A stretch of DNA of 64,000 bases from Sphingobacteriales bacterium (GTDB lineage: Bacteria > Bacteroidota > Bacteroidia > Cytophagales > 172606-1): assembly GCA_031424975.1 (NCBI GenBank), contig JANPIL010000141.1:7293-71292 (forward strand), given 5' to 3'. Under the pieces are notes generated by a model. It ran no database searches, had not been told where the DNA came from, and saw nothing but the letters and a program-made list of their open reading frames with translations. The number at the start of each line of letters is the position of its first letter. The first letter of the stretch is position 1. The position numbers were made by a program, and so were the translations under genes. Positions 42,425-63,127 of the stretch are shown here, one piece after another.

Positions 42425-42466
42425 CCAGCCTTCAATGCGGTGTTCCGTACTAAACCGCCAGCCGGA

Positions 42467-43567
42467 TTAATTTCGCATCAAGTCAATGAATTCATCAAAA
42501 AGATAACGCGAGTCGTGCGGCCCTGGCGATGCTTCGGGGTGGTATTGCACTGAAAAAGCCGGCTTATCTTTGCGCCGGATGCCTTCAATGGTGTCATCGT
42601 TCAGGTTCAGGTGCGTAATTTCAACATTAGCAAAATCGCGTACCACGTCGCCCCGTACGGCAAAACCGTGGTTTTGCGAGGTAATCTCGCCTTTGCCGGT
42701 AATCAGGTTTTTGACCGGATGGTTCAGCCCCCGGTGTCCGTGATGCATTTTATAGGTATCAATTCCACTGGACAAAGCCAATATCTGATGTCCCAGACAA
42801 ATGCCGAACATAGGTTTTTCGGCATCCAGAATTTGCTTGACCGTATTTATCGCGTAAGGCATTGCCGCCGGATCACCGGGACCGTTGGAGATGAAATATC
42901 CGTCTGGATTCCAAGCCTGCATCTCTTCAAAAGATGTTTTGGCGGGAAACACGCGGCAGTAACTGCCACGATTGGCCAGGTTACCCACAATACTTCTTTT
43001 AATACCCAAATCCAGAACCGCAACTTTCCATCGGGAATTCTCATCTCCCACAAAAAACGGCTGTTTTGTACTTACTTGCGAAGACAATTCAAGTCCGGCC
43101 ATATCCGGCACTTCCATTAATTTTTGCCGCAGAACCTGCACATCCGGTATTTCCGAAGATATAATGGCATTCATCGCACCACGGCTGCGAATGTGCCGGA
43201 CTATTTCCCGCGTATCCACCCCATAAATACCCACAATGCCAGCCTTCTCAAAATAGGCTTGTAGAGAAGCATCCGCCATATCGCGCGAGTGGATTGCCGA
43301 AAACGCACTGCATACCATCCCGCTTATTTTCACCGAACCGGATTCCTGTTCGGTGTCTATCGTTCCATAGTTGCCAATATGCGATACTGTATTGATTACG
43401 ATTTGCCCGAAATAAGAGGGGTCAGTGTAGATTTCCTGATAGCCGGTCATGCCGGTATTAAAGCAAACCTCGCCGGCTGTTGTCCCGGTTTTTCCCAGTG
43501 CATACCCACGGTAAATCGTACCATCCTGCAATAAAAGCACAGCTTCGGTGCGTGTTGGATATCTCAT
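42467..43567 (-). CDS. carA: Carbamoyl-phosphate synthase small subunit
   Basis: FNTGMTGYQE..TDPSY, SNGPGDP, GICLGHQ, QYHPEASPGP. Confidence 0.97.
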   Translation of the reverse strand: MRYPTRTEAVLLLQDGTIYRGYALGKTGTTAGEVCFNTGMTGYQEIYTDPSYFGQIVINTVSHIGNYGTIDTEQESGSVKISGMVCSAFSAIHSRDMADASLQAYFEKAGIVGIYGVDTREIVRHIRSRGAMNAIISSEIPDVQVLRQKLMEVPDMAGLELSSQVSTKQPFFVGDENSRWKVAVLDLGIKRSIVGNLANRGSYCRVFPAKTSFEEMQAWNPDGYFISNGPGDPAAMPYAINTVKQILDAEKPMFGICLGHQILALSSGIDTYKMHHGHRGLNHPVKNLITGKGEITSQNHGFAVRGDVVRDFANVEITHLNLNDDTIEGIRRKDKPAFSVQYHPEASPGPHDSRYLFDEFIDLMRN

Positions 43568-43678
43568 GGTAAGTCGGAGGTTTACGGATTTGAAAACATA
43601 TTATTTTGACAGGCTGTAATCAACAATTTAATTTGTCATTTATTGTCCATCACAAACATAAAAATTAACAGGGCATAA

Positions 43679-43711
43679 AAAAAGGATTGGAGACAAACTC
43701 CAATCCTTTTT
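43679..43711 (-). terminator. Intrinsic terminator after rplQ
   Basis: AAAAAGGATTGGAG-ACAAA-CTCCAATCCTTTTT. Confidence 0.85.
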
Positions 43712-43731
43712 CCTATTCAATGAATGCGGCA

Positions 43732-44298
43732 TTATTCCTTGCTTTGAGTTTCCTCCGAAGAAGAATCATCCGCATCTGTATCCTGTGCCGACTGCTCACT
43801 TGCTGGTGCTTCCGTTTCTATAACGGAAGTTGCTTGTACCTCCGCCACATCAGACTCGGAACCCTCCGCCTTTGATTTGCCTCCCCGACGGCTACGACGC
43901 GTCTTTGTCTTCACCTCAGATGCTGCTTTCAGCATTGTTTCGTTGTAATCAACCAATTCAATCAAGCACATATCTGCATTATCACCCGGACGGTTGCCCA
44001 ACTTGATTATACGAGTGTACCCACCTGGACGGTCACCAACTCTTTCGGCAATGTCACCAAACAGTGTCTTAATAGATTCTTTGTTTTGCAAATACGAAAA
44101 AACCGTCCGACGAGAGTGTGTCGTGTCATTTTTGGACTTTGTTATTAAAGGCTCCACATATTTGCGCAGTTCTTTTGCCTTCGCCAACGTTGTCTCAATT
44201 CTCTTGTGCTCAATCAAAGAGGACGCCATATTAGACAATAATGCCTGACGGTGGCTGGATGTCCTTCCTAAATGGTTGTGTGTTTTTCCGTGTCTCAT
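43732..44298 (-). CDS. rplQ: 50S ribosomal protein L17 with acidic tail
   Basis: [23 protein letters not shown]. Confidence 0.97.
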
Positions 44299-44371
44299 AT
44301 TACTAAACTAATAAATTCTATCAATTTACGTCTTTAAACAACATTTTTCATTAAAAATAATGACGGTTTTC

Positions 44372-45361
44372 TCAATCCTCTTCCAACTTGTATTTAATCA
44401 CATCCATACCAAAAGTGAGCCCTTTGTCCGATACCAATTGTTCTAATTCAGTAAGAGATTTTTTTCCAAAATTCCTAAATTTCATCATTTCCGAGATATC
44501 CAACCTTGCCAAATCTCCCAACGTACGGACATCCGCAGACTTAAGACAATTGTACGCACGAACAGACAAATCCAAGTCAGCCAAAGGCGTTTTCAACAAC
44601 TTACGCATATGCAGGTATTCTTCGTCCACCGTATTTTCTTCTTCCGGCTTCATAGCCTCGAATGTCATTGTCTGATCAGAGAATAACATAAAATGCTGAA
44701 TAAGAATTTTTGCAGCACCCTTTAATGCGTCTTCCGGATGAACAGACCCATCTGTCTGGATATCAATCAATAGCCGCTCATAATCGGTTTTTTGTTCGAC
44801 CCGAGTATTTTCAATGCTATATTTGACGTTTTTAATAGGTGTGAAAATAGCATCCACGGAAATAAAACCAATAGATTGGTCACCTTGCTTATTTTCCTCA
44901 GCTGGAACGTAGCCGCGTCCTTTTTCAATTACCAACTCAACTTCCAAATTTACGGATTCATCCATATTACAAATCACCAAGTCTGGATTCAGTATTTGAA
45001 ATGAAGGAGTGAATTTGGCTATGTCACCAGCAATAAATTTCTTGCTGTTTTTGATGTTTATTAAAATCCGGCCATCAACCGCATCCGAGATTTTTTTGAA
45101 CCGAATCATTTTCAAATTCAAAATGATTTCGCTCACATCTTCCACTACTCCTTCTACTGAGGAGAATTCATGCAATACAGTCGGCATTTTAACGGCAGTA
45201 ACAGCATATCCTTCTAATGAAGACAGCAATATCCGACGTAACGCATTGCCAATCGTAACGCCATATCCTTTCTCTAACGGTTTAAATTCAAACAAGCCGT
45301 GAAAATCGTCCGCTTTCTCCATCACCACCTTATCGGGCATCTGAAAAGTTACTATTGACAT
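44372..45361 (-). CDS. rpoA: RNA polymerase alpha subunit
   Basis: [30 protein letters not shown]. Confidence 0.98.
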
Positions 45362-45412
45362 AAATTTAATGTTTTGATTTCTGTTAGAGGACAAACTTCA
45401 CAAACAATTGAA

Positions 45413-46018
45413 TTATTTTGAATACAATTCAACTATGAGTTGCTCCTGAATGTTCTCTGGAATCTGATCTCTATCTGGATAATTGACAAATTTTCCCGTC
45501 ATTACTCCTCCATCCCACTCCAACCAATTGAACCTTTTCGCGTTTTTCGCTGACAAACTATTAGTAATTGCCTCGAGTGACTTAGATTTTTCGCGCACAC
45601 TTATCACATCACCAGGACGCAATGTATACGAGGGTATGTTAACTATGTCTCCATTCACCAAAATGTGTTTGTGAACAACCAATTGGCGTGCAGCCCTACG
45701 GGTGGGAGCCACACCCAACCTATAAACGGTATTGTCCAGTCTGGCTTCCAAAAGACGAAGCAAGTTCTCTCCAGTGATACCTTGCAAGCGACTTGCCTTA
45801 TCAAAAGTATTCGCAAACTGCCGCTCCAGAACTCCGTATGTGTATTTTGCCTTCTGCTTTTCTTGCAATTGAACCGCGTATTCTGATTGCTTGCGCTTTC
45901 GTCCCCTTCCGTGCTGACCAGGAGGATAATTCTTTTTAGCCAAAGCCTTGTTACCTCCAAGAATAGGCTCTCCAAATTTTCGGGATATTCTTGCTTTCGG
46001 ACCTATGTATCTCGCCAT
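45413..46018 (-). CDS. rpsD: 30S ribosomal protein S4
   Basis: MARYIGP..LEARLDN. Confidence 0.98.
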
Positions 46019-46155
46019 TTTATCTAATATTCAAAATTTTATTTTATGTCAGTGTTATGACTTTAAACGCCCGGCCTGTACTTTTATCTTAAGTCGTAAT
46101 AGAGATTTTGTTTGCCTGTGGCTCACGAAATTTTCCACCTCCGCAAATCATGCTT

Positions 46156-46551
46156 TTATACTCTTCTTCGCTTAGGAGGGCGGCATCCATTGTGTGGCAA
46201 TGGAGTAACATCTCTTATAGAGGTTACTTCAATACCTGCATTTTGTATCGTCCTTATAGCAGATTCGCGACCTGCGCCAGGCCCTTTGACAAGAACCTCG
46301 GCCTTACGCATACCCAACTCAAATGCAGTTTGTGCGCAATTAGTAGCTGCCATCTGGGCGGCGTATGGAGTATTTTTCTTCGAGCCTTTAAAACCCATTT
46401 TTCCGGCAGATGCCCACGAGATTACCTGACCATTAATATTCGTAATTGAAATGATAATATTGTTAAAAGAAGCCCTAATATGGATTTGGCCAATAGGCTC
46501 CACTACTACTATTCTTTTTTTGGCCTTGTCTTTCCTTTTTGCCTGCGCCAT
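46156..46551 (-). CDS. rpsK: 30S ribosomal protein S11
   Basis: [18 protein letters not shown]. Confidence 0.98.
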
Positions 46552-46687
46552 TGTTAGGTGTTTTTTAATTGATTTGATTTTCTGAGCGGACTATTTTGCA
46601 CGAAAACAATCAGGTGTTTGAAGATTTATCTACCAAAATATAGGGTTACAAAAAAATATTACAATGACAACCAATTTCGTTATCGCG

Positions 46688-47065
46688 TTATTTAGTTGCT
46701 TTTTTCTTGTTCGCAACTGTTTTGCGCTTGCCCTTTCTTGTACGGGCATTATTTTTTGTCCTTTGCCCCCTAACAGGTAAACCTTTTCTATGGCGAAGAC
46801 CCCTATAGCACCCTATATCCATTAAACGCTTAATACTTAACTGTACCTCCGATTTTAAGGCACCTTCAACTTTAAACTCCCCGGTGATTATGTTACGGAT
46901 TGCATTTGCCTCATCATCAGTCCACTGGTTGGCTTTCTTGTCAAATGACACATTTGCCTTTGCCAAGATTTTTTGGGCAGACCGACGTCCAACACCATAA
47001 ATGTAAGTAAGCGCAATTTCACCGCGCTTCTTATCAGGAATATCAACACCTGCGATACGTGCCAT
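46688..47065 (-). CDS. rpsM: 30S ribosomal protein S13
   Basis: [24 protein letters not shown]. Confidence 0.98.
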
Positions 47066-47070
47066 AAGAA

Positions 47071-47187
47071 TTAACCTTGTCTTTGTTTGAACTTAGGATT
47101 TTTTTTATTAATTACGTAAAGTTTTCCTTTGCGGCGGATGATTTTACAATCAACGCTACGTTTTTTTATAGAGGTCTTTACTTTCAT
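47071..47187 (-). CDS. rpmJ: 50S ribosomal protein L36
   Basis: Hand translation [38 protein letters not shown]; below the ORF-track cutoff. Confidence 0.95.
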
Positions 47188-47225
47188 TTCTGCGGAATTT
47201 TGAGGTAAGCACTAAATATTAGGAA

Positions 47226-47444
47226 TTACTTATAACGGTAGACTATACGACCTTTAGAAAGATCATAAGGTGACATTTCTATTTTGACTTTATCTCCTGG
47301 CAATATCTTGATGTAATTCATTCTCATTTTCCCTGAGATATGAGCTATTAGTTGGTGTCCATTTTGCAACTCCACCCGAAACATTGCATTCGACAAAGCT
47401 TCCACTATCGTTCCGTCTTGTTCAATAGATGATTGTTTTGCCAT
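47226..47444 (-). CDS. infA: Translation initiation factor IF-1
   Basis: [18 protein letters not shown]. Confidence 0.98.
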
Positions 47445-48237
47445 ATTTATTTTTTAAAACTTCTTCTATGTATGCAAATGTTGTGAGTACATCTGCTATT
47501 CCATCATTTATGGCAACTGTGTGTTCGAAATGGGCTGATGGTTTTCGATCTGCCGTTCTTATAGTCCACTTATCTCGCTCTTGAACCACATTTCGAGAAC
47601 CCATATTCACCATAGGCTCGATGGCAATTACCATTCCTTCTTGAAGTCTGATACCTTGACCGCGTTTACCATAGTTTGGGACTTCAGGCTCCTCATGGAG
47701 ATTTCTTCCAATACCATGTCCCACTAATTCTCTTACAACTGAAAATCCATGCTTTACAACATGAGTTTGGATTGCAAACCCAACATCTCCTAACCTTGCG
47801 TTCACAGCGATTTCTTCTATTCCGAAGATTAAAGCTTCTTTTGTACAAGACAGCAAATCAAGAACTGCCGCTTTTACAGTACCTACTGGATAAGTATAGG
47901 CGCTATCACTATGAAATCCGTTCAACAAGACTCCGCAGTCTATCGATACTATATCTCCCTCTTGCAGTTCATAATCATCAGGTATACCATGTACTACCTT
48001 TTCATTTGTAGAAATACAGATTGCTGCTGGAAAACCATTGAAATTTTTAAATGAAGGCCAACCACCATGATCTTTTATGTATTCTTCCGCAATTCTATTT
48101 AGCAATGATGTTTTTACTCCCGGTTCTATGTGCTTGGCAACTTCCGCGTGCGTCTTTGCAAGCAAAACGCCACTTATTCTTATCAGCTCAATCTCATCTT
48201 TTGTTTTGATATGTATCCCTTTCTTTTTCAAAATCAT
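47422..48237 (-). CDS. map: Methionine aminopeptidase type I
   Basis: HGIP, DCG, GHGIG..HEEP, IAIEPM, SAHFEHT. Confidence 0.97.
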
Positions 48238-48246
48238 TATAACCTT

Positions 48247-49569
48247 TTACACTGTCGCGATGCTTTCAGATCTACCTTGTATTCTACCTGATTTCATTAA
48301 ACCTTCATAATGTTGCATCAACAAATAGCTTTCTATTTGCTGGAGCGTATCCAAAATCACACCCACCATAATCAATAAAGAAGTTCCTCCGAAAAACCTC
48401 GATAATTCAGAAGTGATTCCGAACAAACTTGCAATTGCTGGTAATATTGCCAGCAAAGACAGAAACAAGGCTCCGGGCAACGTAATTCTTGACAAAATAG
48501 TATCTATGTAATCCGATGTTTGAATTCCAGGTTTAACATTTGGAATAAACCCCCCATTCCTTTTCATTTCCTCGGATATTTGCACCGGATTGACCGTAAT
48601 GGCCGTGTAGAAAAAACTAAAAAGTATTATCAATAAGGCAAAGAGCAGATTGTATGCAAGGCTTGTGTAATCTGCAAAGTCTTGTGCAATTGCACTGGCG
48701 GCATCATTTTTTCCTGCAAAATAGCTACTAAGTAAACTTGGCAGGAACATCAATGATTGGGCAAAAATAATTGGCATTACTCCGGCAGCATTCAATTTCA
48801 GGGGCAGATACTGGCGCTGTCCGCCATAAACTCTGTTTCCCACCACCTGCTTCGCGTATTGGATAGGTATTCTGCGAGTAGCCTGTAGAACTAAAACAAC
48901 ACCCATTACAATGAAAAACAAAATTATTAACTCTATCACAAAAAAGAGTATTCCTCCAACGCCCAACCTTTGCGCCTCCCCAAATAGTGCTACTGGCAAC
49001 CGCGATATTATTCCAATCATTATTAACATTGATGTGCCATTACCTATTCCCTTCTCCGTAATTCTTTCGCCTAACCACATACAAAACATAGTTCCAGTCG
49101 TCAGCACTATTATGGCACTGATTAGGAATCCTGTTTTTCCAACATCCGGAAGTATTGCATCATCAGCGATAGTACTGACCAAATATGTGTAGGATTGAGG
49201 GATTGTAACTAGTACAGTCAACGCTCTTGTAATTCTGTTCAGTTTCTGTCTTCCCGATTCTCCCTCCTTTTGCATTTTCTGAAAGTAGGGTACTGCTATG
49301 GTCAATAGTTGAACTATTATTGACGCCGTTATGTATGGCATAATGCCTAAACCAAAAATAGATGCGTTGCTAAAAGCTCCGCCCAAAAAAGCGTCAAGCA
49401 ATCCAAGTATGCCATTGGATTGTGAGACGAGTTTTGTTGGATCTATGCCCGGAAGAACAATGAAAGAACCTATACGAAACAACAATAAAAATAATAGTGT
49501 GTTCAGAATACGGGTTCTGAGATCAACTATTGAAAAAATAGCTTTGACTGCTCTAATGGCTTTTCTCAT
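48247..49569 (-). CDS. secY: Preprotein translocase SecY
   Basis: SIFGLGIMPYITASI, GIGNGTS, GGTSLLI. Confidence 0.98.
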   Translation of the reverse strand: MRKAIRAVKAIFSIVDLRTRILNTLLFLLLFRIGSFIVLPGIDPTKLVSQSNGILGLLDAFLGGAFSNASIFGLGIMPYITASIIVQLLTIAVPYFQKMQKEGESGRQKLNRITRALTVLVTIPQSYTYLVSTIADDAILPDVGKTGFLISAIIVLTTGTMFCMWLGERITEKGIGNGTSMLIMIGIISRLPVALFGEAQRLGVGGILFFVIELIILFFIVMGVVLVLQATRRIPIQYAKQVVGNRVYGGQRQYLPLKLNAAGVMPIIFAQSLMFLPSLLSSYFAGKNDAASAIAQDFADYTSLAYNLLFALLIILFSFFYTAITVNPVQISEEMKRNGGFIPNVKPGIQTSDYIDTILSRITLPGALFLSLLAILPAIASLFGITSELSRFFGGTSLLIMVGVILDTLQQIESYLLMQHYEGLMKSGRIQGRSESIATV

Positions 49570-50023
49570 GTGTTTTTTGCGATATTACTGCCTTACCTCC
49601 GACTTCTTCAATTGCTTTGATTGCGGATAAAGAAAAAGCATTCACTTTGATTTCCGCCGCTGTTACAATCTGTCCATCACCTAATACCTTAACTATCTCC
49701 CTATTTGAAATCAAACCATGAAGTTTCAAAAAATTGATATCTATAACACTAACTTTATGCAAATCTAGAAGTTCTTGAATTTTGTCTAAATTTATTGGCT
49801 TGTATTCTACCCTATTCGGAGATGTGAATCCGTATTTCGGTATGCGTCTTTGCAAGGGCATTTGGCCGCCTTCAAAGCCCCTTTTTGCACTGTGGCCTGA
49901 TCTTGATGCAGCACCCTTGTGCCCTCTAGTCGAAGTTCCACCTCTTCCGGAGCCAGTACCACGACCCAGTCTTTTGTTATCACGTACAGAACCTTTCGCA
50001 GGTTTTAGTGTATGTAGTTTCAT
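49553..50023 (-). CDS. rplO: 50S ribosomal protein L15
   Basis: GRGTGSGRGGT..FEGGQMPL. Confidence 0.97.
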   Translation of the reverse strand: MKLHTLKPAKGSVRDNKRLGRGTGSGRGGTSTRGHKGAASRSGHSAKRGFEGGQMPLQRRIPKYGFTSPNRVEYKPINLDKIQELLDLHKVSVIDINFLKLHGLISNREIVKVLGDGQIVTAAEIKVNAFSLSAIKAIEEVGGKAVISQKTHEKSH

Positions 50024-50028
50024 CTTTC

Positions 50029-50208
50029 TTAAACTTCCTTTACCGTAATCAAATGAATCACTTTTCTTAACATTCCAGAAATCTGTGGTGTATTTTCTAC
50101 TTCCACCGTTCTATTTATTTTACCTAGACCTAGAGCTTGAATAGTAAGCTTTTGATTATTTGGTCTTTTAATAACGCTTCTGATTTGAGTAATCTGAATC
50201 TTTCCCAT
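50029..50208 (-). CDS. rpmD: 50S ribosomal protein L30
   Basis: Hand translation MGKIQITQIRSVIKRP..ALGLGKINRTVE..; below the ORF-track cutoff. Confidence 0.93.
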   Translation of the reverse strand: MGKIQITQIRSVIKRPNNQKLTIQALGLGKINRTVEVENTPQISGMLRKVIHLITVKEV

Positions 50209-50210
50209 AA

Positions 50211-50723
50211 TTAGCCATTAAAAACTTTCGAAAGAGATATTCTTCTTTGTACTGCTACTTGGTGAGGTGCACGCATTTTCAAAAGGGCATCGAAAGTAGC
50301 CTTTACCACGTTATGTGGATTAGATGATCCTTTCGACTTTGCGAGCACATCTTTCACTCCCGCACTTTCCAATACTGCACGCATTGCCCCCCCAGCTATA
50401 ACTCCAGTACCTGCCGCAGCAGGTTTGAGAAACACGTAACCTCCGCTATATTTGCCATGCATTTCATGGGGAACTGTAGATTTCAATACAGGAATCTTGA
50501 TTAGATTTTTTTTTGCATCCTCTACACCTTTTGTGATTGCGTCTGTCACTTCGTTCGCCTTTCCCAAGCCATAACCAACTGTACCATGTGCATCTCCCAC
50601 TACAACTATTGCTGAGAAGCTAAACCTCCTTCCTCCTTTAACAACTTTTGCAACACGCTTGATAGCAACAACTTTTTCCTTAAGTTCAAGTTCACTTGCT
50701 TTGGCAATTGTTTTTTGTATCAT
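50211..50723 (-). CDS. rpsE: 30S ribosomal protein S5
   Basis: [14 protein letters not shown]. Confidence 0.98.
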
Positions 50724-50735
50724 ATTTTTTTTATT

Positions 50736-51086
50736 TTAGAATTTCAATCCCCCTTCACGGGCTCCTTCTGCAAGTGCTTTCACTTTACCGTGATACAAGT
50801 AACCGCCACGATCGAATACAACAGATACAATACCATTAACTAATGCTTTTTCTGCTATTTTCTTCCCTACTCCTTTTGACGATTCTATTGTATTGTTTTT
50901 AGAATTTCCCGTCTCAACGGAAGATGCACTTAAAATGGTTTTCCCTGAGACATCGTCTATTAGCTGTGCATATATCGCCGTGTTTGATCTAAACACCGAT
51001 AACCGAGGTCTATCTGATGTTCCTTTGACTTTTGCACGAATCACTCTTCTGATACGCAATCTGCGAGCATCCTTGTTATTAGTCAT
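50736..51086 (-). CDS. rplR: 50S ribosomal protein L18
   Basis: [24 protein letters not shown]. Confidence 0.98.
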
Positions 51087-51090
51087 ATTT

Positions 51091-51648
51091 TTATTTTTTT
51101 GCGGCTGTTTTACCAGCTTTTCTTCTAATCAATTGTCCTGAAGTTCTTATTCCTTTACCTTTGTAAGGCTCTACTTTGCGAAGAGACTTTATTTTGGCAG
51201 CAACTTGACCTACCAATTCTTTATCAATACCTTCAAGAGTCACAACTGGATTTTTACCTTTTTCAGTTATGGCCAAAGCTTTAATTTCTTGGGGAAATGT
51301 CAAAAACAAACCATGAGAATATCCTAAACTTAATTCTAACACATTGTTAACAACAGTAGCTTTGTAACCAACGCCTACTATTTCAAGGCTTTGCTTGAAT
51401 CCGTCACTTACCCCCACAATCATGTTATTCACTAAGGATCGATACAAACCATGGAGAGCTTTATGACGCTTTTGCTCTGTGGGCCGCTCTACTACTATTT
51501 GAGACCCCTCTTGTCTCACAATTATATCTGGATCTACTTTGCGGGAAAGTAAACCCTTGGGGCCTTTCACAATGACCACATTACCTATTTCAATTGAAAC
51601 AGTAACATCTGCTGGCAAACTTATCGGCTTTTTACCTATTCTCGACAT
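51091..51648 (-). CDS. rplF: 50S ribosomal protein L6
   Basis: [17 protein letters not shown]. Confidence 0.98.
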
Positions 51649-51655
51649 ATTAATG

Positions 51656-52410: not shown

Positions 52411-52414
52411 ATTT

Positions 52415-53433: not shown

Positions 53434-53457
53434 TTCTAACGTGTCTAAAAACCTAAA

Positions 53458-53826: not shown

Positions 53827-53828
53827 AG

Positions 53829-54098
53829 TTATTTAGCTTTTTCTATTATTTCGATAAGTCTCCAACGCTTGTTCTTACTGAGAGGTCGCGTTTCCATTAT
53901 TTTGATTGTATCCCCTATGCCACACTCATTTCTTTCGTCATGAGCCATTAATTTCGTTGTTTTTGTCATAAACTTGCCATACTTGGGATGCTTTACTTTT
54001 CTTTCTATGGCAATTGTTATGGACTTGTCCATTTTATTACTTACAACGCGTCCTGTTCGTTCTTTTCTCGCGTTTCTCTCTGACAAGTTTGGTTCCAT
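53829..54098 (-). CDS. rpsQ: 30S ribosomal protein S17
   Basis: [23 protein letters not shown]. Confidence 0.98.
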
Positions 54099-54108
54099 TG
54101 ATTTGGTT

Positions 54109-54309
54109 CTATTTAATGTTTGCTATTTCTCTTGCTTTTATCTCAGTTAGGATTCGGGCAATCATCTTTCGGGATTCACGAATCCTAACTGGACTTTCGA
54201 TTGGGCTAATGGCATGGGCAAATCTTAATTTTTGGAGAGTGATTCTTTCAGAATTCACTCTCTGATGAAGCGCATCAAAGTCCAATGCTTCAATTTCTTT
54301 ATTTTTCAT
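54109..54309 (-). CDS. rpmC: 50S ribosomal protein L29
   Basis: Operon position; [14 protein letters not shown]. Confidence 0.93.
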
Positions 54310-54377
54310 TTTTAAAACAGTATTTTTTATAAAAACTCATTTCGACTAAAAAAATAATCGATTGCAACAAATCGGTA

Positions 54378-54803
54378 TTATTGACCCTCAACATAATCCC
54401 TTCGAACAATAAATCTGGTTTTTACCGGCAATTTTTGTGCTGCCAAACGCAATGCCTCTTGCCCCGTCGCTTTGTCAACGCCTGTTATTTCAAACAAGAT
54501 AGTTCCGGGTTTTATTACTGCGACCCAATATTCAGGTGCGCCTTTTCCTTTACCCATCCTTACCTCAGCTGGTTTTTTGGTGATAGGCTTGTCAGGAAAT
54601 ATACGAATCCAAACTTGACCTTCACGTTTCATTGTGCGCGTCATTGAAATACGTGCCGCTTCAATCTGACGGGAAGTTATCCAACCTGGCTCCAAGGATT
54701 TGACCCCAAATGACCCGAATGCTATCTCGTGTCCTCTCGTCGCCAAACCCTTGACACGACCTTTATGCATTTTCCTAAACTTCGTTCTTTTCGGTTGTAA
54801 CAT
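54378..54803 (-). CDS. rplP: 50S ribosomal protein L16
   Basis: [18 protein letters not shown]. Confidence 0.98.
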
Positions 54804-54859
54804 CGCTTTTCATAAATTTATTTCAAGGTATAGAACCCGATCCGTAACCTCAAATATTC

Positions 54860-55681
54860 CTACCTACTACCGGTTGTGGGGGCTCTTTTCTTCTTCTTAT
54901 TTCTGCGTGCAGAGTCTTTATCACCGCCCTTATCTCTGCTACGATCACTACCTCTGTCACCACCACCCTCGCGGCGGTTACCACGATCATTACTTACATT
55001 GCCACCCGTTGCGGTTGCAGCATTTCCGTATGTTGCATTTGGTGACAAGTCGCGCTTTCCAAACACCTCTCCCTTAAAAATCCATACCTTTATACCTATC
55101 TTACCGTATACGGTTTGCGCTTCTGAAATAGCATAATCAATATCCGCACGCAGTGTGTGCAAAGGTATTCTACCCTCTTTATATTCTTCAGTCCTTGCCA
55201 TATCTGCCCCAGCTAAGCGACCGGATAGACGTACTTTGATCCCTTGAGCTCCCACACGTGTAGCTGCAGAGATAGATTGCTTCATAGCTCGGCGATAGGA
55301 AATGCGAGCCTCCAATTGCTGGGCAATTGATTCACCAACTAATTTGGCATCCAACTCAGGACGTCTAATCTCAAAAATATTGATTTGTACGTCTTTGTTC
55401 GTCAATTTCTTCAACTCCTCCTTCACTCTTTCAACTTCGATACCATTCTTCCCTATCACCACCCCCGGACGAGCAGTATTGACCGTGAGTGTCACGCGCT
55501 TTAATGTACGTTCGATCACAACTTTTGCAATGCCTCCCTTAGGAAAACGAGCCATTACATACTTTCGTATTCTTTCATCCTCAATAAGTTTTTCAGCGAA
55601 ATTTTTTCCGCCATACCAATTGGAATCCCAACCTTTTACAATTCCTAAGCGAAAACCTGTTGGATTGACTTTTTGTCCCAT
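54860..55681 (-). CDS. rpsC: 30S ribosomal protein S3
   Basis: [23 protein letters not shown]. Confidence 0.98.
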
Positions 55682-55699
55682 GCTTATTATTTGGTTTCT

Positions 55700-56077
55700 T
55701 TAATTTTCTTTTTTCGTAGCAGCAGATGCAGCAGTATTTTTTGAATCTAAAACTATGGTTATGTGGTTGGAACGCTTTCGTATACGATGTCCACGTCCTT
55801 GTGGAGCGGGTCTTAATCGTTTAAGCATTCGCCCTTCATCCACAAAAATCATCTTTATAAACAGGTTTGCTTCCTCTATCCTCTCCGCCTCATTTGATTG
55901 TTCCCAGTTAGCTATTGCAGAAAGGAGTAATTGTTCGATTTTTTTGGATCCGGACTTCGAATCGTAACGAAGAAGGTTCAGCGCATCATTTACACGTCTT
56001 CCTCTTACCATGTCCGCTATAAGCCTCATTTTTTGAGGAGAGGTAGGGACGTTTCTTAGTTTAGCTGTTGATTCCAT
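55700..56077 (-). CDS. rplV: 50S ribosomal protein L22
   Basis: [22 protein letters not shown]. Confidence 0.98.
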
Positions 56078-56355
56078 TATTTTTTACCTTTATCCTTGTT
56101 ACCCGAATGACCTCTGAAATTACGAGTCGGCGAAAACTCACCCAATTTGTGCCCTACCATATTCTCGGTGACGTATACTGGAATAAATTTATTCCCATTA
56201 TGAACCGCAAATGTATGACCCACGAAATCAGGTGAAATAGTTGAACGCCGTGCCCAAGTCTTTATAACGGATTTCTTACCTGACCTGCCGACATTCTCTA
56301 TTTTACTTGATAATCGAAAATCTACGTAAGGCCCTTTTTTAATTGAACGTCCCAT
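56077..56355 (-). CDS. rpsS: 30S ribosomal protein S19
   Basis: [19 protein letters not shown]. Confidence 0.98.
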
Positions 56356-56391
56356 TTATGCGAATTGAATTTTACTTATGGAAGTTATATT

Positions 56392-57216
56392 TTATTTTCG
56401 GTTTTTGCGACCCATGATTAAGTCATTCGAATATTTCTTTGGCTTTCTTGTTTTCTTGCCCTTCGCATAAAGTCCGTTACGTGAACGTGGTTGCCCTCCA
56501 GATGCCTTTCCCTCACCACCACCCATTGGATGGTCTACTGGATTCATTGCAACCCCACGTACACGGGGACGACGACCCAACCAGCGCTTACGACCTGCTT
56601 TTCCAAGGCTTACATTCATGTGATCTGCATTTGACACAGACCCTATAGTAGCCATACATGTAACCAACACCAATCGCATTTCTCCTGAAGGAAGTTTAAG
56701 CGTTGCATATTTCCCCTCACGTGCTACTAACTGTGCATACGTTCCCGCACTGCGAGCCATGGCTCCACCCCGACCAGGCTGCAGTTCTATGTTGTGTACA
56801 ACAGTTCCCATTGGTATGTCGGATAAAGGAAGTGCATTCCCGACTTCAGGAACAGAACCAGCACCTGAACTCACAATTTGACCAACGGATATTCCTGTAG
56901 GAGCAATTATATATCTTTTTTCTCCATCAGCATATGTCAATAAAGCTATACGAGCTGATCGGTTTGGATCATATTCAACTGTATCAACGGTAGCACTTAT
57001 GTGTTTATCTCTTTTAAAGTCTATTATGCGATACCTGCGTTTGTGACCACCGCCTATGTAACGCATGGCTCGATGTCCACTATCGTTTCTTCCCCCACTT
57101 TTCTTTATCGCCGCAGTAAGGGGCTTGTAAGGCTTACTTACTGTGATTTCCTCAAACGCAGGGGCGACTCTAAATCGTTGACCTGGTGTAGTTGGTTTTA
57201 GTTTTTTTACAGCCAT
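56392..57216 (-). CDS. rplB: 50S ribosomal protein L2
   Basis: [25 protein letters not shown]. Confidence 0.98.
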
Positions 57217-57276
57217 TTTCGTAAACTTTTACTTCAGAGGAGAGCGTGCTGTGACACATGCCATTAAATTCGCCAG

Positions 57277-57561
57277 TTATTCTCCGTAAAAATCAATTAC
57301 CTCGCCATCAGATAATGATATCATTGCCTTTTTATAGGTACTTGTACGTCCTCTGCTTACTTTCGACTGGCTTGAACGAGATTTAGCTTTGCCTACGCAT
57401 CGAATAGTTCTGACTACATTAACATTAACATTATACAAACTTTCGATTGCTTTTTTTATTTCAATTTTATTGGCACTCTTGTCAACCTCAAAAGTATACA
57501 CTCCCTTTTCGGACATTGCATTTGCTTTCTCAGTTATGATTGGCTTTTTTATAATACTCAT
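57277..57561 (-). CDS. rplW: 50S ribosomal protein L23
   Basis: PIITEK..ANKIEIKKA..YKKA. Confidence 0.97.
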   Translation of the reverse strand: MSIIKKPIITEKANAMSEKGVYTFEVDKSANKIEIKKAIESLYNVNVNVVRTIRCVGKAKSRSSQSKVSRGRTSTYKKAMISLSDGEVIDFYGE

Positions 57562-57569
57562 GATTGTGA

Positions 57570-58193
57570 TTATTTTAACAATTCTTCAATTTTCGACAGT
57601 GAGGTTTCACTTATAAACAGGTGATCCGCATGTATCAAGGCGTGAGTATTCAACTGATTGACTAACATTACTTTTGCCTTTGGAAGATTACGGCTGGATA
57701 AGACAACATTCATGTTCGTTTCTGGCAGCACCATTAGCGTTTTTTTATCAGCCGCACCCAAACTTTGCAGTATTTTCAGATAGTCTTTCGTCCGTGGCTG
57801 ATTCAAAGTAAATTCCTCCAGAATTGTAATCGAGTCTTTTGCTTTGTAAGAGAGGGCGGACTTGCGAGCCAGTTCTTTTACTTTTTTGTTTAATTTGAAG
57901 CCGTAATCGCGTGGGACCGGTCCAAAAACGCGACCGCCATGACGGTACAGAGGGTTTTTAATGCTTCCTTTTCGCGAGCCTCCCGTACCTTTTTGCTTGT
58001 GCAACTTACGCGTGGAGCCATGAACTTCATTTCGCTGTTTTGCCTTATGTGTTCCTTGGCGTTGATTGGCCATGAACTGCTTTACATCCAAATAGATGGC
58101 GTGATTGTTTGGTATTATTCCAAAAATAGAGTCAACAAGGACAACCTTCCTGCCTGTATCTTTTCCGTCGATGCTATGTATTGCGATTTCCAT
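57570..58193 (-). CDS. rplD: 50S ribosomal protein L4
   Basis: RQGTHKAK..QKGTGGSRKG. Confidence 0.98.
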   Translation of the reverse strand: MEIAIHSIDGKDTGRKVVLVDSIFGIIPNNHAIYLDVKQFMANQRQGTHKAKQRNEVHGSTRKLHKQKGTGGSRKGSIKNPLYRHGGRVFGPVPRDYGFKLNKKVKELARKSALSYKAKDSITILEEFTLNQPRTKDYLKILQSLGAADKKTLMVLPETNMNVVLSSRNLPKAKVMLVNQLNTHALIHADHLFISETSLSKIEELLK

Positions 58194-58232
58194 AAAAAAT
58201 ATCTGTCATTGTTGCGTGAGAAAGTTCGCGCA

Positions 58233-58868
58233 TTACATAAATTCTCTGTGATTGTCTATAACAACAAATGAACTTTTCGCTCCCGGAACCGAGCCGCTGA
58301 CCAGAATCAGATTCTTTTCGGGAATTACTTTTAAGATACGCAGATTCTGGATAGTAACACGGTTGCCACCAGTTCTGCCTGCCATTCGTAATCCTTTAAA
58401 AACACGAGCCGGGAAAGAACAAGCCCCTATTGATCCCGGGTGGCGCTGGCGATTGTGTTGGCCGTGGGTTGCTCCTCCAACACCACTGAAACCATGCCTC
58501 TTAACAACACCTTGAAAACCTTTTCCTTTGGAAGTTCCTACAACATCTATGAATTCTCCCGCTTCACACACGTCTTCTGCTTTTACCGTATCCCCCAGAC
58601 TCACGTCTATTAAAAAATCCTTAAATTCTACCAGTTTACGCTTAGGGGTTGTGTTTGCTTTTTTGAAATGCCCCAGCAAAGGCTTTGTCGTGTTTTTCTC
58701 TCTCTTGTCACCGAAAGCAAGTTGTATCGCCGCATATCCATCGGTTTGCATAGTTTTAACCTGCGTTACGGCACATGGCCCAGCTTCAATAACGGTACAT
58801 GCCACACTTTCACCATTTTCAGTGAAAATGGTAGTCATTCCGATTTTCTTTCCTATTATCCCTGACAT
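58233..58868 (-). CDS. rplC: 50S ribosomal protein L3
   Basis: [17 protein letters not shown]. Confidence 0.98.
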
Positions 58869-58952
58869 GGTTGCTTAAAAAATATATTTGTACGTTGCCA
58901 TCAAGAATCTTCTCTTCAAAATAGCAACAAACTACCTTTTTGAAACGGATTG

Positions 58953-58960
58953 CAAAGGTA
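58953..58960 (-). promoter_or_regulatory. Bacteroidota -7 promoter element (rplC)
   Basis: TACCTTTG on the - strand in the 223-bp rpsJ-rplC gap. Confidence 0.6.
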
Positions 58961-59091
58961 ATGATTGAGAATGGTATTGCAAGAAAATGTTAAAAAAAAT
59001 CATTATTTGGTCGCTTGCCTTCATTGCAAGAAACATATTGCCACCAAACTAATCTATTTGTGCGCAATCGAATTTCCCTTACAAGTTCGCG

Positions 59092-59397
59092 TCAGACCTT
59101 AATTTCCACGTCAACGCCGCTCGGAAGCTCAAGTTTCATCAATGCATCTACCGTTTTTGCACTTGATGAATGAATATCAATTAACCGCTTGTACGTGCAT
59201 AACTGAAATTGCTCGCGCGACTTTTTGTTTACGTGTGGAGAGCGCAAAACAGTAAACCTTTCCATCTCCGTTGGCAAAGGAATCGGACCACTTACCACAG
59301 CACCCGTAGATTTAACAGCCTTAACAATTCTTTCGCACGATTTGTCCACGAGGCTGTGGTCAAATGACTTTAATTTGATGCGGATTTTCTGTGTCAT
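59092..59397 (-). CDS. rpsJ: 30S ribosomal protein S10
   Basis: [20 protein letters not shown]. Confidence 0.98.
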
Positions 59398-59504
59398 TTT
59401 ATCAAAGTTCGTTAATCAAATTCAAAAATTTTTTCCCAGCACGAGGGTTCGAACATATGTGTTTGGCCGTATCAAACCTCGCAACCTGCACGGTAAAGGA
59501 AAAA

Positions 59505-61646
59505 TTACTTTGCCCCCTTTATTCTGGCAATCTCTACTTCTGCCAAGTTAGAAGGCAGTATTTCGTAGTGCGAAAACGTCAAACTGGCAGCAGCTCGACC
59601 TGAGGTGATTGTCCGTAGGTCTGTTACATACCCGAACAATTTTGATAGCGGCACATCGGCCTTTACAACTTGGGAACCAGCTTTACTATCCATTCCTTTC
59701 ATCACGCCACGACGCCGGTTCAAGTCACCAGTAACAGGGCCGGTGAATTCATCGGGGGTTATAACCTCCACGCTCATTATTGGTTCAAGCAATTTGGGGC
59801 CGGCTTGCTTTGCTGCTTCCCGGAAACCATCGCGGGCGGCTATCTCAAAGGAAAGCGAATCCGAATCCACGTCATGATAGGAGCCATGGAACAATCGGAT
59901 TTTCATGTTATCCAATGGAAACCCTGCTAATGTGCCAGTTTTCATGGCTTCCGCAAAGCCTTTTTCCACTGCCGGAATAAATTCCCGTGGAATCACACCG
60001 CCCACAATTCCATTTACAAACTGGAAACTCAAGGTGGGATTAGCTACTTTCCACTCCTCATCTACTGGGCTCATTTCAAACACGATGTCCGCAAATTTTC
60101 CACGGCCACCGGTTTGTTTCTTGAACAATTCACGGTGTTCAACCGACTTAGTGATGGTTTCCTTGAAAGCGACTTGTGGCGCACCTTGATTGATTTCAAC
60201 ATTGAATTCACGCCGCATCCGGTCAATAATAATCTCCAAGTGCAACTCACCCATACCTCTCAGAATGGTTTGACCTGTCTCCTGATCCGTTTCCACACGG
60301 AGCGTAGGATCTTCCTCCACCAACTTTGTAATGGCATTGCTCAACTTATCGGCATCCGCTTGTTTCTTAGGCTCAATAGCATACCCGATTACCGGCTCGG
60401 GGAAACTCATTGATTCAAGTATGATAGGCTTATCTTCAAACACAAGTGTGTCGCCGGTTTTTATATCCTTGAAGCCCACACCTGCCGCAATATCACCCGC
60501 CTCCACCTTGTCAATCGGGTTTTGTTTGTTGGCATGCATCTGCATCAGGCGAGAAATGCGTTCTTTTTTGCCGGTACGCATATTTAATACGTAAGACCCC
60601 GCATCCAAGAAGCCGGAATACACACGAAAGAATGCCAGACGACCTACGTAAGGATCAGTGGCAATTTTGAAAGCCAAGGCAGCAAAAGGTTCCTTGTTAT
60701 CCGCTTTCCTTTCCTCTTCCTTTCCCGTATCCGGATTTTCCCCTTTAACGGGAGGCAAATCCATGGGAGACGGCAAGTATGCCATCACAGCATCCAGCAT
60801 GGTCTGTACGCCTTTGTTTTTGAAAGCAGAACCGCACAACACTGGGGTTATATCCATGGCTATCGTCGCCTTACGGATAGCAACCATCAGTTCGTCGCGG
60901 GTGATGGTATCAGGGTTATCAAAGAATTTTTCCAGCAACTTGTCATCATATTCGGCAATCGACTCCACCAGATATTGCCGCCACTCATTAGCCGTTTCCA
61001 CTAAGTCTTCCGGAATCTCAACTACTTTGTAAGTCTTGCCTTTATCCTCCTCATTCCAAATAATTCCTTGCATAGTCAGCAAGTCCACTACGCCCTTGAA
61101 CTGGGCTTCAGCCCCAATGGGAATTTGCAAGGGAACGGGCTTAGCACTGAGTTTTTCCTTTATCTCCTTTACGCAATTGTAGAAGTCAGCACCATCACGA
61201 TCCATCTTGTTGACAAAACAGAGGCGGGGCACACCATATTTGTTGGCTTGCCGCCATACTGTTTCGGATTGAGGTTCGACACCCGAAACCGCATCAAACA
61301 ATGCCACCGCACCATCAAGCACACGCAAAGAACGTTCGACTTCCACAGTAAAATCCACGTGGCCGGGTGTGTCAATCAGGTTAATCTCGTATGTTTTGGT
61401 GACACCTGCAATAGGATCACCTTGTTCGGTCGGGTAATTCCACTGCGAATGGGTAGCGGCAGACGTAATCGTGATTCCTCGCTCCTGTTCCTGCACCATC
61501 CAATCCATTGTGGCGGCACCATCATGGACTTCCCCTATCTTATGGGTTCTTCCGGTATAATAAAGAATGCGTTCACTTGTGGTGGTTTTACCAGCATCAA
61601 TGTGAGCCATGATGCCAATGTTGCGCAGATAATGTAAATCGGCCAT
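59505..61646 (-). CDS. fusA: Elongation factor G
   Basis: [23 protein letters not shown]. Confidence 0.98.
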
Positions 61647-61822
61647 AATTCTGATTACCTGTCGGTAGTAATGTTTGGTTTTTTTAAAGCGGGTTCGATT
61701 CTCACAAGAAAAGCGGACAATTCAGCCGCTTTTCCTTGCAGACGGAACAAGGTGGTTTAACTTTTTGAGAAAGATTGCCTCCGTTTAAATTTCAGGCATT
61801 CCATCCGGCTTTGCACCCTACA

Positions 61823-62290
61823 TCAGAATCTGAAGTGCGAGAAAGCTTTGTTTGCATCGGCCATGCGGTGCGTGTCATCTTTCTTTTTCACTGCGGCACC
61901 TTCGCCTTTGGCAGCGGCAACAATTTCGCCCGCCAGCCTTTCGGTCATTGTCTTCTCTCCTCGCCGACGCGAATACATAATCATCCACTTGATTCCCAAT
62001 GCCTGCTTCCTTTCGGGGCGAATCTCCGTGGGTACCTGGAATGTTGCACCACCCACTCGGCGGCTGCGTACTTCCACACCGGGCATAATGTTGTTCAAAG
62101 CTTTTCTCCAAATGTCCAAGCCATTTTCGCTGGTGCGTTTGGACACCATTTCAACCGCGTCGTAGAAAATAGCATACGCGGTGCTTTTCTTGCCATCATA
62201 CATCAGAGAATTAACAAATTTGGTCACCAGCACATCCTTGAACTTAGGATCGGGCAATACGTAGCGTTTTTTGGGTTTCGACTTTCTCAT
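61823..62290 (-). CDS. rpsG: 30S ribosomal protein S7
   Basis: [20 protein letters not shown]. Confidence 0.98.
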
Positions 62291-62451
62291 GGCTTTCGTG
62301 TGTGTTTACACAGCGCTTCTCCGGAATTTTACCACCGAATACTCACGATATTTTGTGTTTTTATGAAATATATAAGTTGAATGGCGAATTTTACTTACTT
62401 AAAACGCACTGTTTTCTTCGGCTGCTTTTTTCCAAAAACCTTTCTGCCCGG

Positions 62452-62853
62452 CTATTTCTTTTTGGCCGGTGCTGGCTGACCCGGTTTCGGTCTTTTCGCG
62501 CCGTACTTTGAACGCCCTTGCTTACGGTTGGCTACGCCAGCCGTGTCCAACGCGCCACGCACAATGTGGTAGCGAACACCCGGCAAATCCTTCACCCTGC
62601 CACCTCGGATAAGCACGATTGAGTGTTCCTGCAAATTGTGCCCCTCGCCCGGAATGTACGCGTTCACTTCCTTCGTATTACTCAAACGGATGCGAGCTAC
62701 CTTGCGCAAAGCTGAATTCGGCTTCTTTGGCGTAGTCGTGTACACGCGGGTACACACTCCCCGGCGCTGCGGGCATGAATCCAAGGCGGGTGATTTGGAC
62801 TTAAACTCCAGCTTTACCCTTCCCTTGCGTACTAACTGTTGGATGGTTGGCAT
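62452..62853 (-). CDS. rpsL: 30S ribosomal protein S12
   Basis: [21 protein letters not shown]. Confidence 0.98.
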
Positions 62854-62902
62854 TTATGAATAATTTTTGGCGTTGCTTGATTGGGTTTTTATTTTGGGAA
62901 TG

Positions 62903-62910
62903 CAAAATTA
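62903..62910 (-). promoter_or_regulatory. Bacteroidota -7 promoter element (rpsL)
   Basis: TAATTTTG on the - strand, about 50 bp before the ATG. Confidence 0.6.
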
Positions 62911-62981
62911 GGGCTTTCCGTGAGGAATACAAAAATCTTATACAATTTTTCCATCGCGTTCTGATTTGGCTCCTGCCAAAA

Positions 62982-63016
62982 GCAAAAAGTCGCGGTTGTG
63001 AACTGCGACTTTTTGC
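62982..63016 (-). terminator. Hairpin downstream of purE
   Basis: GCAAAAAGTCGC-loop-GCGACTTTTTGC. Confidence 0.7.
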
Positions 63017-63075
63017 GTAGAACCAATGAAAATGCCCCTTTCAGGCTATCTGAAACGCTTGTGTGCCTACCCTCG

Positions 63076-63104: not shown

Positions 63105-63127
63105 TGTAATCCGAAATTTCAGATTGG

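Follow-up and report, generated by a model that had tools for sequence, protein, structure and literature searches.

Why should a native ribosomal superoperon carry the composition and the codons of foreign DNA? The question is raised by a 64,000-nt stretch of a Sphingobacteriales bacterium (the window, in what follows; it is part of a 76.9-kb contig), in which the str-S10-spc-alpha ribosomal superoperon forms a block of ~40% GC in a genome of 52.9% GC. That source genome (G000) is a 4.6-Mb metagenome-assembled genome (MAG) in 515 contigs; G003 is its sister species, and G004, G002, G005 and G001 are other members of the genus, Xanthocytophaga. The bacterium is an uncultured member of the Cytophagales, of a soil type. 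The block is native, vertically inherited DNA, and it is not accounted for by ordinary codon selection, by gene import or by errors of assembly. It forms a smooth compositional valley, its genes have lost their codon bias, its silent sites change faster than those of typical genes, and its spacers are AT-rich too. The best available explanation, to which we give somewhat less than even confidence, is that the block holds an AT-rich equilibrium of its own, to which a regional process favouring GC does not extend, and that some extra transitions are added; the mechanism is one that we infer.

The valley is evident at every scale of counting. In 1-kb windows, GC is 0.37-0.43 over 44-59 kb and 0.45-0.48 over 59-63 kb (fusA to rpsL); the remainder of the window lies mostly at 0.50-0.60. 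GC at third codon positions (GC3) is 0.28-0.44 from rplQ to rplC, 0.49 in fusA, 0.58 in rpsG, 0.63 in rpsL and 0.50 in carA; flanking genes have 0.60-0.75. In bins of 100 codons the profile is smooth, with shoulders of 3-5 kb on each side: coming from downstream, GC3 descends from 0.64 in the flank to 0.50 in carA, to ~0.45 in the alpha genes and to 0.25-0.32 from map to rplF, and it then climbs through ~0.40 in the S10 genes and 0.50 in fusA to 0.58-0.63 in rpsG and rpsL. The initial annotation, made from spot counts, had called the superoperon AT-rich, with GC rising toward its edges and with frequent ATA, AGA and TTA codons. All of this is confirmed, the codons by shares of 41% of Ile (ATA), 30% of Arg (AGA) and 21% of Leu (TTA) in the block, as against 12%, 3% and 2% in typical genes; AGG (13%) and CGA (10%) are further codons of the block.

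Is this a property of codons or of the region? Silent sites have a GC3 of ~0.34 in the block and ~0.68 in the rest of the genome. Non-coding spacers, counted with copies of a dispersed 34-nt word (Motif A, to which we return) masked, have 51.2% GC between typical genes, 35.3% in the block and 36.0% between the genes of AT-rich islands. Because the spacers of the block are AT-rich like its genes, the GC state is regional rather than set at the level of codons. The genome is a mosaic of two compositional states that span coding and non-coding DNA, and the native block is in the AT state. Silent and non-coding GC are both lower in the block, the feature that would mark a region free of GC-biased gene conversion (gBGC). 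Judged as a genomic island, the block is atypical and island-like in composition, but its borders are the 3-5-kb gradients just described rather than sharp edges.

What has been lost in the block is seen in the effective codon number (Nc), which is 53.0 in the block core, against 54.8 expected: a deficit of 1.8. Elsewhere in G000 the deficit is 1.0 in AT islands, 10.3 in typical genes, 11.8 in other ribosomal-protein genes and 9.9 in tuf, rplK, rplA and rplL together. (Typical genes thus have an Nc ~10 below the expectation from GC3, and the intergenic DNA between them has 51% GC: the GC-rich state is strongly specific to codon and context and also reaches non-coding DNA.) The same block genes use ATA for 15-18% of Ile in G002, G004 and G005. 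The preference of relatives for T-ending codons has dissolved into A-, G- and C-endings in G000 and G003: GCT has gone from 0.50 to 0.23 and CCT from 0.65 to 0.35, and ATA has risen from 0.17 to 0.41. A set of 32 tRNA genes was found in the MAG, too incomplete to judge the decoding of ATA, AGA and TTA.

Other ribosomal genes of the same genome are different. Among 50-odd translation and housekeeping genes located in the MAG with E. coli K-12 proteins as queries, 14 ribosomal-protein genes and tsf from outside the block (among them rplM, rpsI, rpsB, tsf, rpsA, rplT, rpmI, rpsO, rpmA, rplU, rpsP, rpsF, rpsR, rplI) have GC3 of 0.54-0.79 and the codon pattern of the typical genome; their contigs carry Motif A, which indicates that these genes belong to this lineage. 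A second, shallower GC3 dip (0.44-0.56) is found at 10,540-15,514 of contig C233, in rplL-rplJ-rplA-rplK-nusG-secE-tuf. Unlike the block, it has the codons of the classic optimised pattern (CGT 42%, GGT 48%, ATA 13%, AGA 3%).

The silent sites of the block also change fast. Over 655 kb of G003 compared with G000, four-fold sites within identical amino acids (differences unpolarised) diverge by 0.226 in the block and by 0.133 in 337 typical genes, a ratio of 1.7; none of 100,000 resamplings of typical genes reached the block mean. Silent divergence falls back at the upstream shoulder (rpsG, 0.088), and it is low or typical in the small ribosomal operon (0.057-0.154). The usual pattern is that of the AT-rich pair G002-G005, in which the block is slower than its flanks (0.138 vs 0.205). 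Against G004, G005 and G001, Nei-Gojobori silent sites are saturated (proportion of silent differences 0.69-1.0), so the block is no slow-moving fossil. In windows of 300 bp, G000-G003 identity is 81-96% in the block and 77-99%, somewhat patchier, in the flanks. Positions 38,900-41,900 are 96-99% identical to G003 amid surroundings at 85-95%, and genes at 27.6-30.7 kb have a silent divergence of 0.04-0.08; the two patches hint that the flanks have recently been exchanged between the species.

The spectrum of these differences is as informative as their number. Transitions outnumber transversions 3.0 to 1 in the block and 1.46 to 1 in typical genes; on the coding strand, four-fold differences are 164 C/T vs 103 A/G in the block and 2,393 vs 2,026 in typical genes. 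Simple arithmetic on four-fold base frequencies, which assumes that fixation bias explains a GC of 0.82 vs 0.34, predicts a 1.47-fold rise of AT/GC exchanges if the bias is lost and mutation is unchanged, and a 3.6-fold rise if GC-to-AT mutation alone is raised. The observed rise is 1.96-fold overall, 1.40-fold for transversions and 2.14-fold for transitions (C/T 2.4, A/G 1.8). The simplest fit to these values is that a GC-favouring force has been lost in the block and that a moderate, strand-skewed excess of transitions is superimposed. Where three outgroups agree, changes at the tips have a per-site GC-to-AT rate ~2x the AT-to-GC rate, which predicts an equilibrium GC3 of ~0.35; on the stem shared by G000 and G003, ancestral T has gone to A 36 times, to G 13 times and to C 12 times.

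That the block is native follows from its relatives. In G003 (~92% DNA identity) the same gene order and the same valley, gene by gene, lie between GC-rich, motif-bearing flanks on one 72-kb contig. The valley of G004, also on a single contig, is shallower (flanks GC3 0.42-0.49, block 0.20-0.35). SecY identity to G000 tracks kinship: 98% in G003, 81-84% across the genus, 65-72% across the family. Concatenated block proteins (4,956 columns) give a tree with the topology of the tree of RplM, RpsI, RpsB, Tsf and CarA, namely ((G000,G003),(G004,(G002,G005))), with comparable depths; the named forks have 97-100% support (in the block tree, G001 has no resolved place). The block is syntenic, with purK-purE upstream and carA downstream, in G003, G004, G002 and G005; in G001 the purK-purE side is matched and carA is unmatched within the 25 kb examined. 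The superoperon is single-copy in the G000 assembly, which holds no second, GC-typical version elsewhere. The horizontally replaced operon that had been offered as one option gains no support from this kinship, synteny and copy number, nor from the comparison of block and non-block trees that had been proposed as its check: the topologies are congruent and the relative depths similar.

The features of the locus are collected in the Table. The layout of the superoperon is of the Bacteroidota style, as judged from Pfam scans and gene order. L17, RpoA, Map, SecY, L2, EF-G, S7 and S12 are supported by Pfam; the names of rpmC, rpmD, infA and rpmJ, and of block genes outside the Pfam scan, are putative and come from conserved order and size. 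A hairpin followed by a T run, read from the sequence directly 3' of rplQ, is the probable terminator of the alpha operon, although it is not listed by a terminator consensus scan. Scans of the block for sigma-70 and terminator consensus sequences gave match counts not above those of shuffled sequence.

Table. Features of the superoperon locus (positions in the window) and related loci
Feature	Position	Strand	Basis or remarks
str-S10-spc-alpha ribosomal superoperon (AT-rich block)	43732..62853	-	Pfam matches, open reading frame list, GC and GC3
Gene order, start of block			rpsL, rpsG, fusA, rpsJ, rplC, rplD, rplW, rplB, rpsS, rplV, rpsC, rplP, (rpmC), rpsQ
Gene order, middle of block			rplN, rplX, rplE, rpsN, rpsH, rplF, rplR, rpsE, (rpmD), rplO, secY, map
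Gene order, end of block			(infA, rpmJ), rpsM, rpsK, rpsD, rpoA, rplQ
Valley floor (map, secY, rplO, rpsE, rplR, rplF)	47422..51690	-	GC3 0.25-0.40, minimum of the block
Upstream shoulder	59505..62853	-	GC3: fusA 0.47-0.53, rpsG 0.58, rpsL 0.61-0.63
carA, downstream shoulder	42467..43567	-	Pfam CPSase_sm_chain and GATase; GC3 0.46-0.52
Terminator-like hairpin, directly 3' of rplQ	43678..43712	-	Stem GGATTGGAG...CTCCAATCC, then T run; read from sequence
Motif A, full copy, left bracket	42391..42424	+	Position-weight (PWM) score 48.7 bits
Motif A, degenerate copy between carA and rplQ, where the motif-free stretch has its true left edge	43574..43607	+	PWM 28.6 bits
Motif A, full copy between purE and rpsL, right bracket	63076..63109	-	PWM 43.6 bits
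Motif core matched at 14/15 by chance, within the block	53477..53491	+	No upstream half; PWM <12 bits
Hymenobacteraceae loci with low-GC superoperon (isolates)			L096, L098, L100, L103, L105-L109, L130, L133, L139

How might a native block come to be in the wrong compositional state? The explanation preferred here is that, in the lineage of G000 and G003, the block would have settled at its own AT-rich silent equilibrium (GC3 ~0.34) since two forces would not take hold there: selection on codon usage, which shapes these genes in every relative examined, and the regional GC-favouring process that would keep GC3 at ~0.68 and intergenic DNA at 51% GC elsewhere. Codons and spacers alike would drift to the outcome of AT-biased mutation, which is also the composition of the foreign AT-rich islands. 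The process would be regional, not limited to coding sequence, hence probably of the biased-gene-conversion or repair type; it would reach ~3-5 kb into a 19-kb run of heavily transcribed, tightly packed and constrained genes, and so generate the shoulders at carA and at fusA-rpsL. The extra transitions, more C/T than G/A on the coding strand, are of the kind that heavy transcription could cause. Reduced recombination in the block would jointly account for the shoulders, the immunity of ribosomal operons of 2-3 kb, the lost codon bias, the longer protein stem and the spacers empty of Motif A. Reduced recombination would agree with what has been reported for many species: translation genes have the lowest ratio of recombination to mutation (r/m) across 145 species, with r/m and GC positively correlated in 82% of species (PMC11879095), and recombining genes have higher GC3, for which GC-biased gene conversion has been hypothesized (Lassalle et al. 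2015, PMC4450053). The likeness to these systems is that the effect is regional and that optimal codons do not explain it; the gap in the present case is ~34 points, with a gradient on the scale of kilobases.

A number of points weigh against this explanation. 1) The gene calls are our own crude picks of open reading frames by a codon model, and the genomes close to G000 are all MAGs, with just one close species pair (G000-G003) among them. 2) Other ribosomal operons must be transcribed about as heavily yet are unaffected, so that transcription alone would serve as a cause only with a further assumption; recombination coldness, for its part, would depend on the sheer length of the block. The rpoB-rpoC pair, 8 kb of conserved and motif-free DNA, dips just to a GC3 of 0.62-0.67. 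3) GC change in the genus is not polarisable on the tree given above, with G001 rich in GC and the outgroups mixed. The polarised counts at tips and stem are small, and they come from saturated outgroups, against which parsimony is weak. 4) Outside the block, lower GC3 goes with lower silent divergence (rho +0.15), so that the genome-wide trend does not independently back a connection of gene flow with GC. 5) C/G transversions are not raised in the block (10 events), and simple deeper coalescence does not fit either. 6) The silent-site skews of the block are small, T over A and G over C by ~0.05.

The alternatives are taken in order of declining plausibility. Could heavy transcription alone suffice, with deamination of coding-strand cytosines raising GC-to-AT mutation until it swamps codon selection and GC pressure? 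The process is familiar: strand-asymmetric, transcription-associated cytosine deamination was reportedly described in E. coli genes by Beletskii and Bhagwat in 1996 and by Francino and Ochman in 2001. The block resembles it in the coding-strand excess of C/T over G/A in a heavily transcribed unit (P ~2e-4 by chi-square, unpolarised), and the raised silent divergence and transition/transversion ratio are as it would have them. It would also accommodate the AT-richness of the block spacers, which are transcribed, the position of the minimum in the spc region, where read-through from upstream promoters would accumulate, and the partial depression of carA, which read-through downstream of rplQ would fit. 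Yet operons in equal demand (rplM-rpsI-rpsB-tsf, rpsF-rpsR-rplI, rpsL-rpsG) have typical GC3 and low or typical silent divergence, and G002 and G005 have the same block without the rate rise or the asymmetry, so that the effect is lineage-specific. T-ending codons have been replaced mostly by A-ending ones, which coding-strand deamination does not yield; the skews are small; and the rise in AT/GC exchange is well short of the 3.6-fold that it requires. Unlike the deamination of E. coli, the phenomenon is absent from other ribosomal operons here and from the same block in G002 and G005. Transcription as the sole cause seems unlikely to us; it leaves several observations unexplained, and so does import from an unsampled sister (below).

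A bolder form of the preferred explanation deserves mention as a speculation, one that we consider rather unlikely: that the superoperon is a bacterial "recombination desert", and that lineage-specific GC-biased conversion, possibly tied to the spread of an uptake-signal-like Motif A, remodelled the rest of the genome, genes and non-coding DNA alike, except the foreign islands. If so, the block would be a read-out of the raw mutational equilibrium (GC3 ~0.34, as against 0.68 elsewhere) and a case of linkage-limited selection in bacteria, with codon bias lost and proteins evolving about twice as fast. Hill-Robertson interference is reported to weaken codon bias towards the centre of long coding regions under dense selection in Drosophila (the work is that of Comeron and Kreitman, in 2002). 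The block is similar in a valley-shaped drop in the efficacy of weak directional forces, deepest centrally, and in its faster protein evolution (a stem of 0.15 vs 0.07 in sister lineages, a roughly twofold lengthening); it differs in that interference itself does not explain the higher silent rate or the codon bias that relatives have kept. To our knowledge, a Hill-Robertson valley of codon bias has never been shown for a bacterial operon.

What, then, is Motif A, and does its absence from the block matter? It is a 34-nt word (consensus AGGCGGGTTTGGGCTTTTTAAAAGATACTATTTT) of which a PWM scan finds 3,318 copies at 14 bits or more in G000; as a control, reversed or complemented sequence gives 2 matches at a looser cutoff of 12 bits. 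Copies are mostly intergenic, in both orientations and in equal numbers per strand. There is a mild excess in convergent spacers (examples in the window are at 5559, 24076, 37989, 42411 and 63075). A role as promoter or terminator was considered and rejected: copies turn up in about half of all spacers, whichever way they point, and favour gene 3' ends only mildly. Within the genus the counts are 2,048 in G000, 2,077 in G003 and 2,380 in G004, but 158 in G001, 127 in G002 and 124 in G005; even the motif-poor genomes have 4-80 times more copies than the reversed-pattern control, and in the other families examined the motif is at background. Abundance does not follow the tree, G004 being sister to G002 and G005 (~125 each) and G000 and G003 (~2,050 each) branching outside, which implies independent expansion, loss or horizontal spread.

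The initial annotation had described a 20.6-kb Motif A desert between inward-facing copies. The brackets are real, as is the desert; its length is not, since the degenerate copy in the spacer between carA and rplQ leaves 43,608-63,075, or 19.5 kb. (Between 42 and 64 kb there are four copies, the three of the Table and one at 63,772 on the minus strand. The match at 53,477, which lacks the upstream half, was rejected as a copy; the same place matches also in the motif-poor G002 and G005.) The motif-free stretch is the second longest interval in the assembly with motifs on both sides, where gaps average 1.2 kb and have a 99th percentile of 5 kb. However, other conserved genes (rpoB, rpoC, dnaK, atpA, atpD, infB, rpsA and others) likewise have no internal copy. 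Co-directional spacers of 80-250 nt carry the motif in 53-68% of cases genome-wide, but it is missing from all six block spacers of 107-223 nt (P ~3e-3, as the product of genome-wide spacer frequencies); in G004, Motif A is found only in the two outermost spacers of the operon. With this architecture taken into account, the desert is only modestly larger than expected by chance. The missing motif would mainly be a by-product of that architecture, of conserved genes and short regulatory spacers; it could also reflect the same coldness, and would not be the cause of the low GC.

The few tightly packed runs of typical composition do carry Motif A, and motif-free runs in this fragmented assembly are mostly compositional islands. 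Positions 1-47,538 of contig C201 are such a run: 47.5 kb at 40% GC, with GC3 of 0.35-0.43 throughout, many large genes and no Motif A, adjoining motif-bearing DNA, and probably a large foreign island. Contig C379, at ~16,000-33,600, is motif-free with GC3 above the norm (0.65-0.80) and adjoins AT-rich, motif-free DNA at 9-16 kb; long motif-free DNA may accordingly be atypical in either direction.

It had been proposed that the block is a recombination-cold region that escaped motif-linked replacement: Motif A would be a signal of the uptake or recombination type, near which DNA is replaced or converted more often and so becomes GC-rich. Several observations have the right sign. The block lacks both the motif, even in six spacers where a copy is expected, and the rise in GC; the genomes with 2,000-2,400 copies (G000, G003, G004) have the largest gaps between block and flanks in the genus, and G002 and G005 almost none; local motif density correlates with GC3 genome-wide (rho 0.22-0.51); and the copies of G004 stop at the outermost operon spacers. 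The density correlation is driven only by the lowest 5-10% of genes, however, which lie in foreign islands, and above these GC3 stays level at 0.69. Where native DNA has no motif for 7-9 kb, GC3 is still 0.70-0.77. The check originally suggested, GC3 against distance to the nearest copy, gives no fall with distance genome-wide (Spearman +0.07 to +0.09), and carA is at 0.50 despite a copy within 100 nt of each end. G001 has 52% GC with just 158 copies, and the block is AT-richer too in relatives that have few copies or none (G001, Pontibacter, Rufibacter, Nibribacter), the gap in the Hymenobacteraceae being 6-12 points without Motif A. The cold-region idea survives in one part: escape from a GC-raising process is viable, and the gradient that it predicts is present. 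Its motif-linked part fails the very tests set for it, and we hold it to be improbable.

Homologous replacement from an unsampled, AT-rich sister lineage with neither motif nor codon bias, before the split of G000 and G003 or repeatedly, would explain why the block is like the foreign AT islands of its own genome in GC3, Nc and missing motif (long motif-free stretches elsewhere, C201 foremost, being mostly compositional islands), why the extra G000-G003 divergence is limited to the block, and why the block protein stem is long. But the trees are congruent, and the stem, 0.15 in block proteins, is 0.12 in non-block proteins: the donor would need the recipient's own branch point. The edges are gradients of several kilobases, not steps, and almost the same in G000 as in G003 when compared gene for gene; a valley of graded depth is seen again in G004, G001 and the Hymenobacteraceae. 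No near-identical donor is among the matches listed from 185,579 species genomes and from JGI metagenome contigs: EF-G found nothing above 73% identity among the matches listed from the latter, and the scan of genome contigs no relative closer than G001-G005 among its listed matches, in a collection that may omit G000 and very near genomes. Such a replacement is quite improbable on this evidence.

Is the valley simply what sustained translational selection leaves behind when ancestral A/T-ending optimal codons are kept through a genomic GC upshift? In relatives it may well be. In a comparison of 66 Cytophagales loci around secY, block GC is 39-44% and flank GC 45-56% in Pontibacter, Rufibacter and Nibribacter, a gap of 6-12 points; in Spirosoma and Larkinella, of similar genomic GC, the gap is just 2-3 points. 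Motif A is absent from the four Hymenobacteraceae genomes searched for it (two Pontibacter, Rufibacter and Nibribacter). Block Nc in the Hymenobacteraceae is 44.7-48.7 where 51.9-58.5 is expected; the favoured codons are CGT, AGA and GGT, and ATA is rare. Within the genus, G001 (block 5-6 GC points under its flanks) has 51.8 against 60.4, and G002 and G005 have 42 against 48.5. A valley with strong codon bias, as in G001, Pontibacter, Rufibacter and Nibribacter (block Nc 8-10 under expectation), is a known effect, and tuf, rplK, rplA and rplL of G000 show it as well. The block of G000 and G003 is different. Its Nc is close to expectation, it is rich in ATA, TTA, AGG and CGA, the T-ending preference of its relatives is gone, its silent sites are faster than the genome average instead of slower, its spacers are equally low in GC, and the other ribosomal genes of the genome are GC-typical. 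Continued codon selection is accordingly a very improbable cause.

An assembly or binning chimera, an AT-rich ribosomal contig joined into a GC-rich one (conserved ribosomal genes are classic chimera joints, and the MAG has 515 contigs), can be dismissed with near certainty: both flanks bear the lineage-specific Motif A, composition shifts gradually without a joint, the layout recurs in a sister MAG ~8% divergent (as one 72-kb contig) and, more mildly, in G004, block proteins are placed with the same relatives as flanking genes, and cultured isolates with complete genomes also have gaps between block and flanks.

The nearest precedents for a lagging ribosomal composition are Lactobacillus delbrueckii and L. 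fermentum, whose ribosomal-protein genes trail a genomic GC upshift, with Nc below 40 and old optimal codons under sustained selection (PMC5629928; Sun, Tamarit and Andersson). The likeness lies in GC-rich silent sites, ribosomal-protein genes well under the genome GC3, and a foreign, AT-rich second class of genes. The differences are instructive: 1) codon bias is absent from the block, in which ATA and AGA are abundant; 2) the other ribosomal operons are spared, the effect being confined to the 19-kb superoperon; 3) its silent sites are 1.7 times faster than those of typical genes, and its spacers are AT-rich too. Ribosomal-protein clusters are also flagged as compositionally atypical by genomic-island finders (SIGI-HMM, PMC1489950; SWGIS/Pre_GI, PMC5630688), and this is likewise a native ribosomal cluster that appears "alien" by composition. 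The usual cause there is the codon bias of high expression; here the codons are unbiased and match those of truly foreign AT islands.

The usual yardstick for optimal codons, expression-based codon indices and phylogenomic markers is the set of ribosomal-protein genes, and this superoperon holds roughly a quarter of the bacterial markers in common use. Yet in this lineage the block has the rarest codons of its own genome, no codon bias and fast silent change, and the other ribosomal operons of the same cell are normal. Codon-adaptation indices trained on ribosomal genes would mislead here, and composition-based binning and island finders will misjudge such blocks. Region is separated from function within one genome, and the block offers a natural contrast for asking what keeps bacterial genomes richer in GC than mutation would make them: selection, biased gene conversion or regional mutation.

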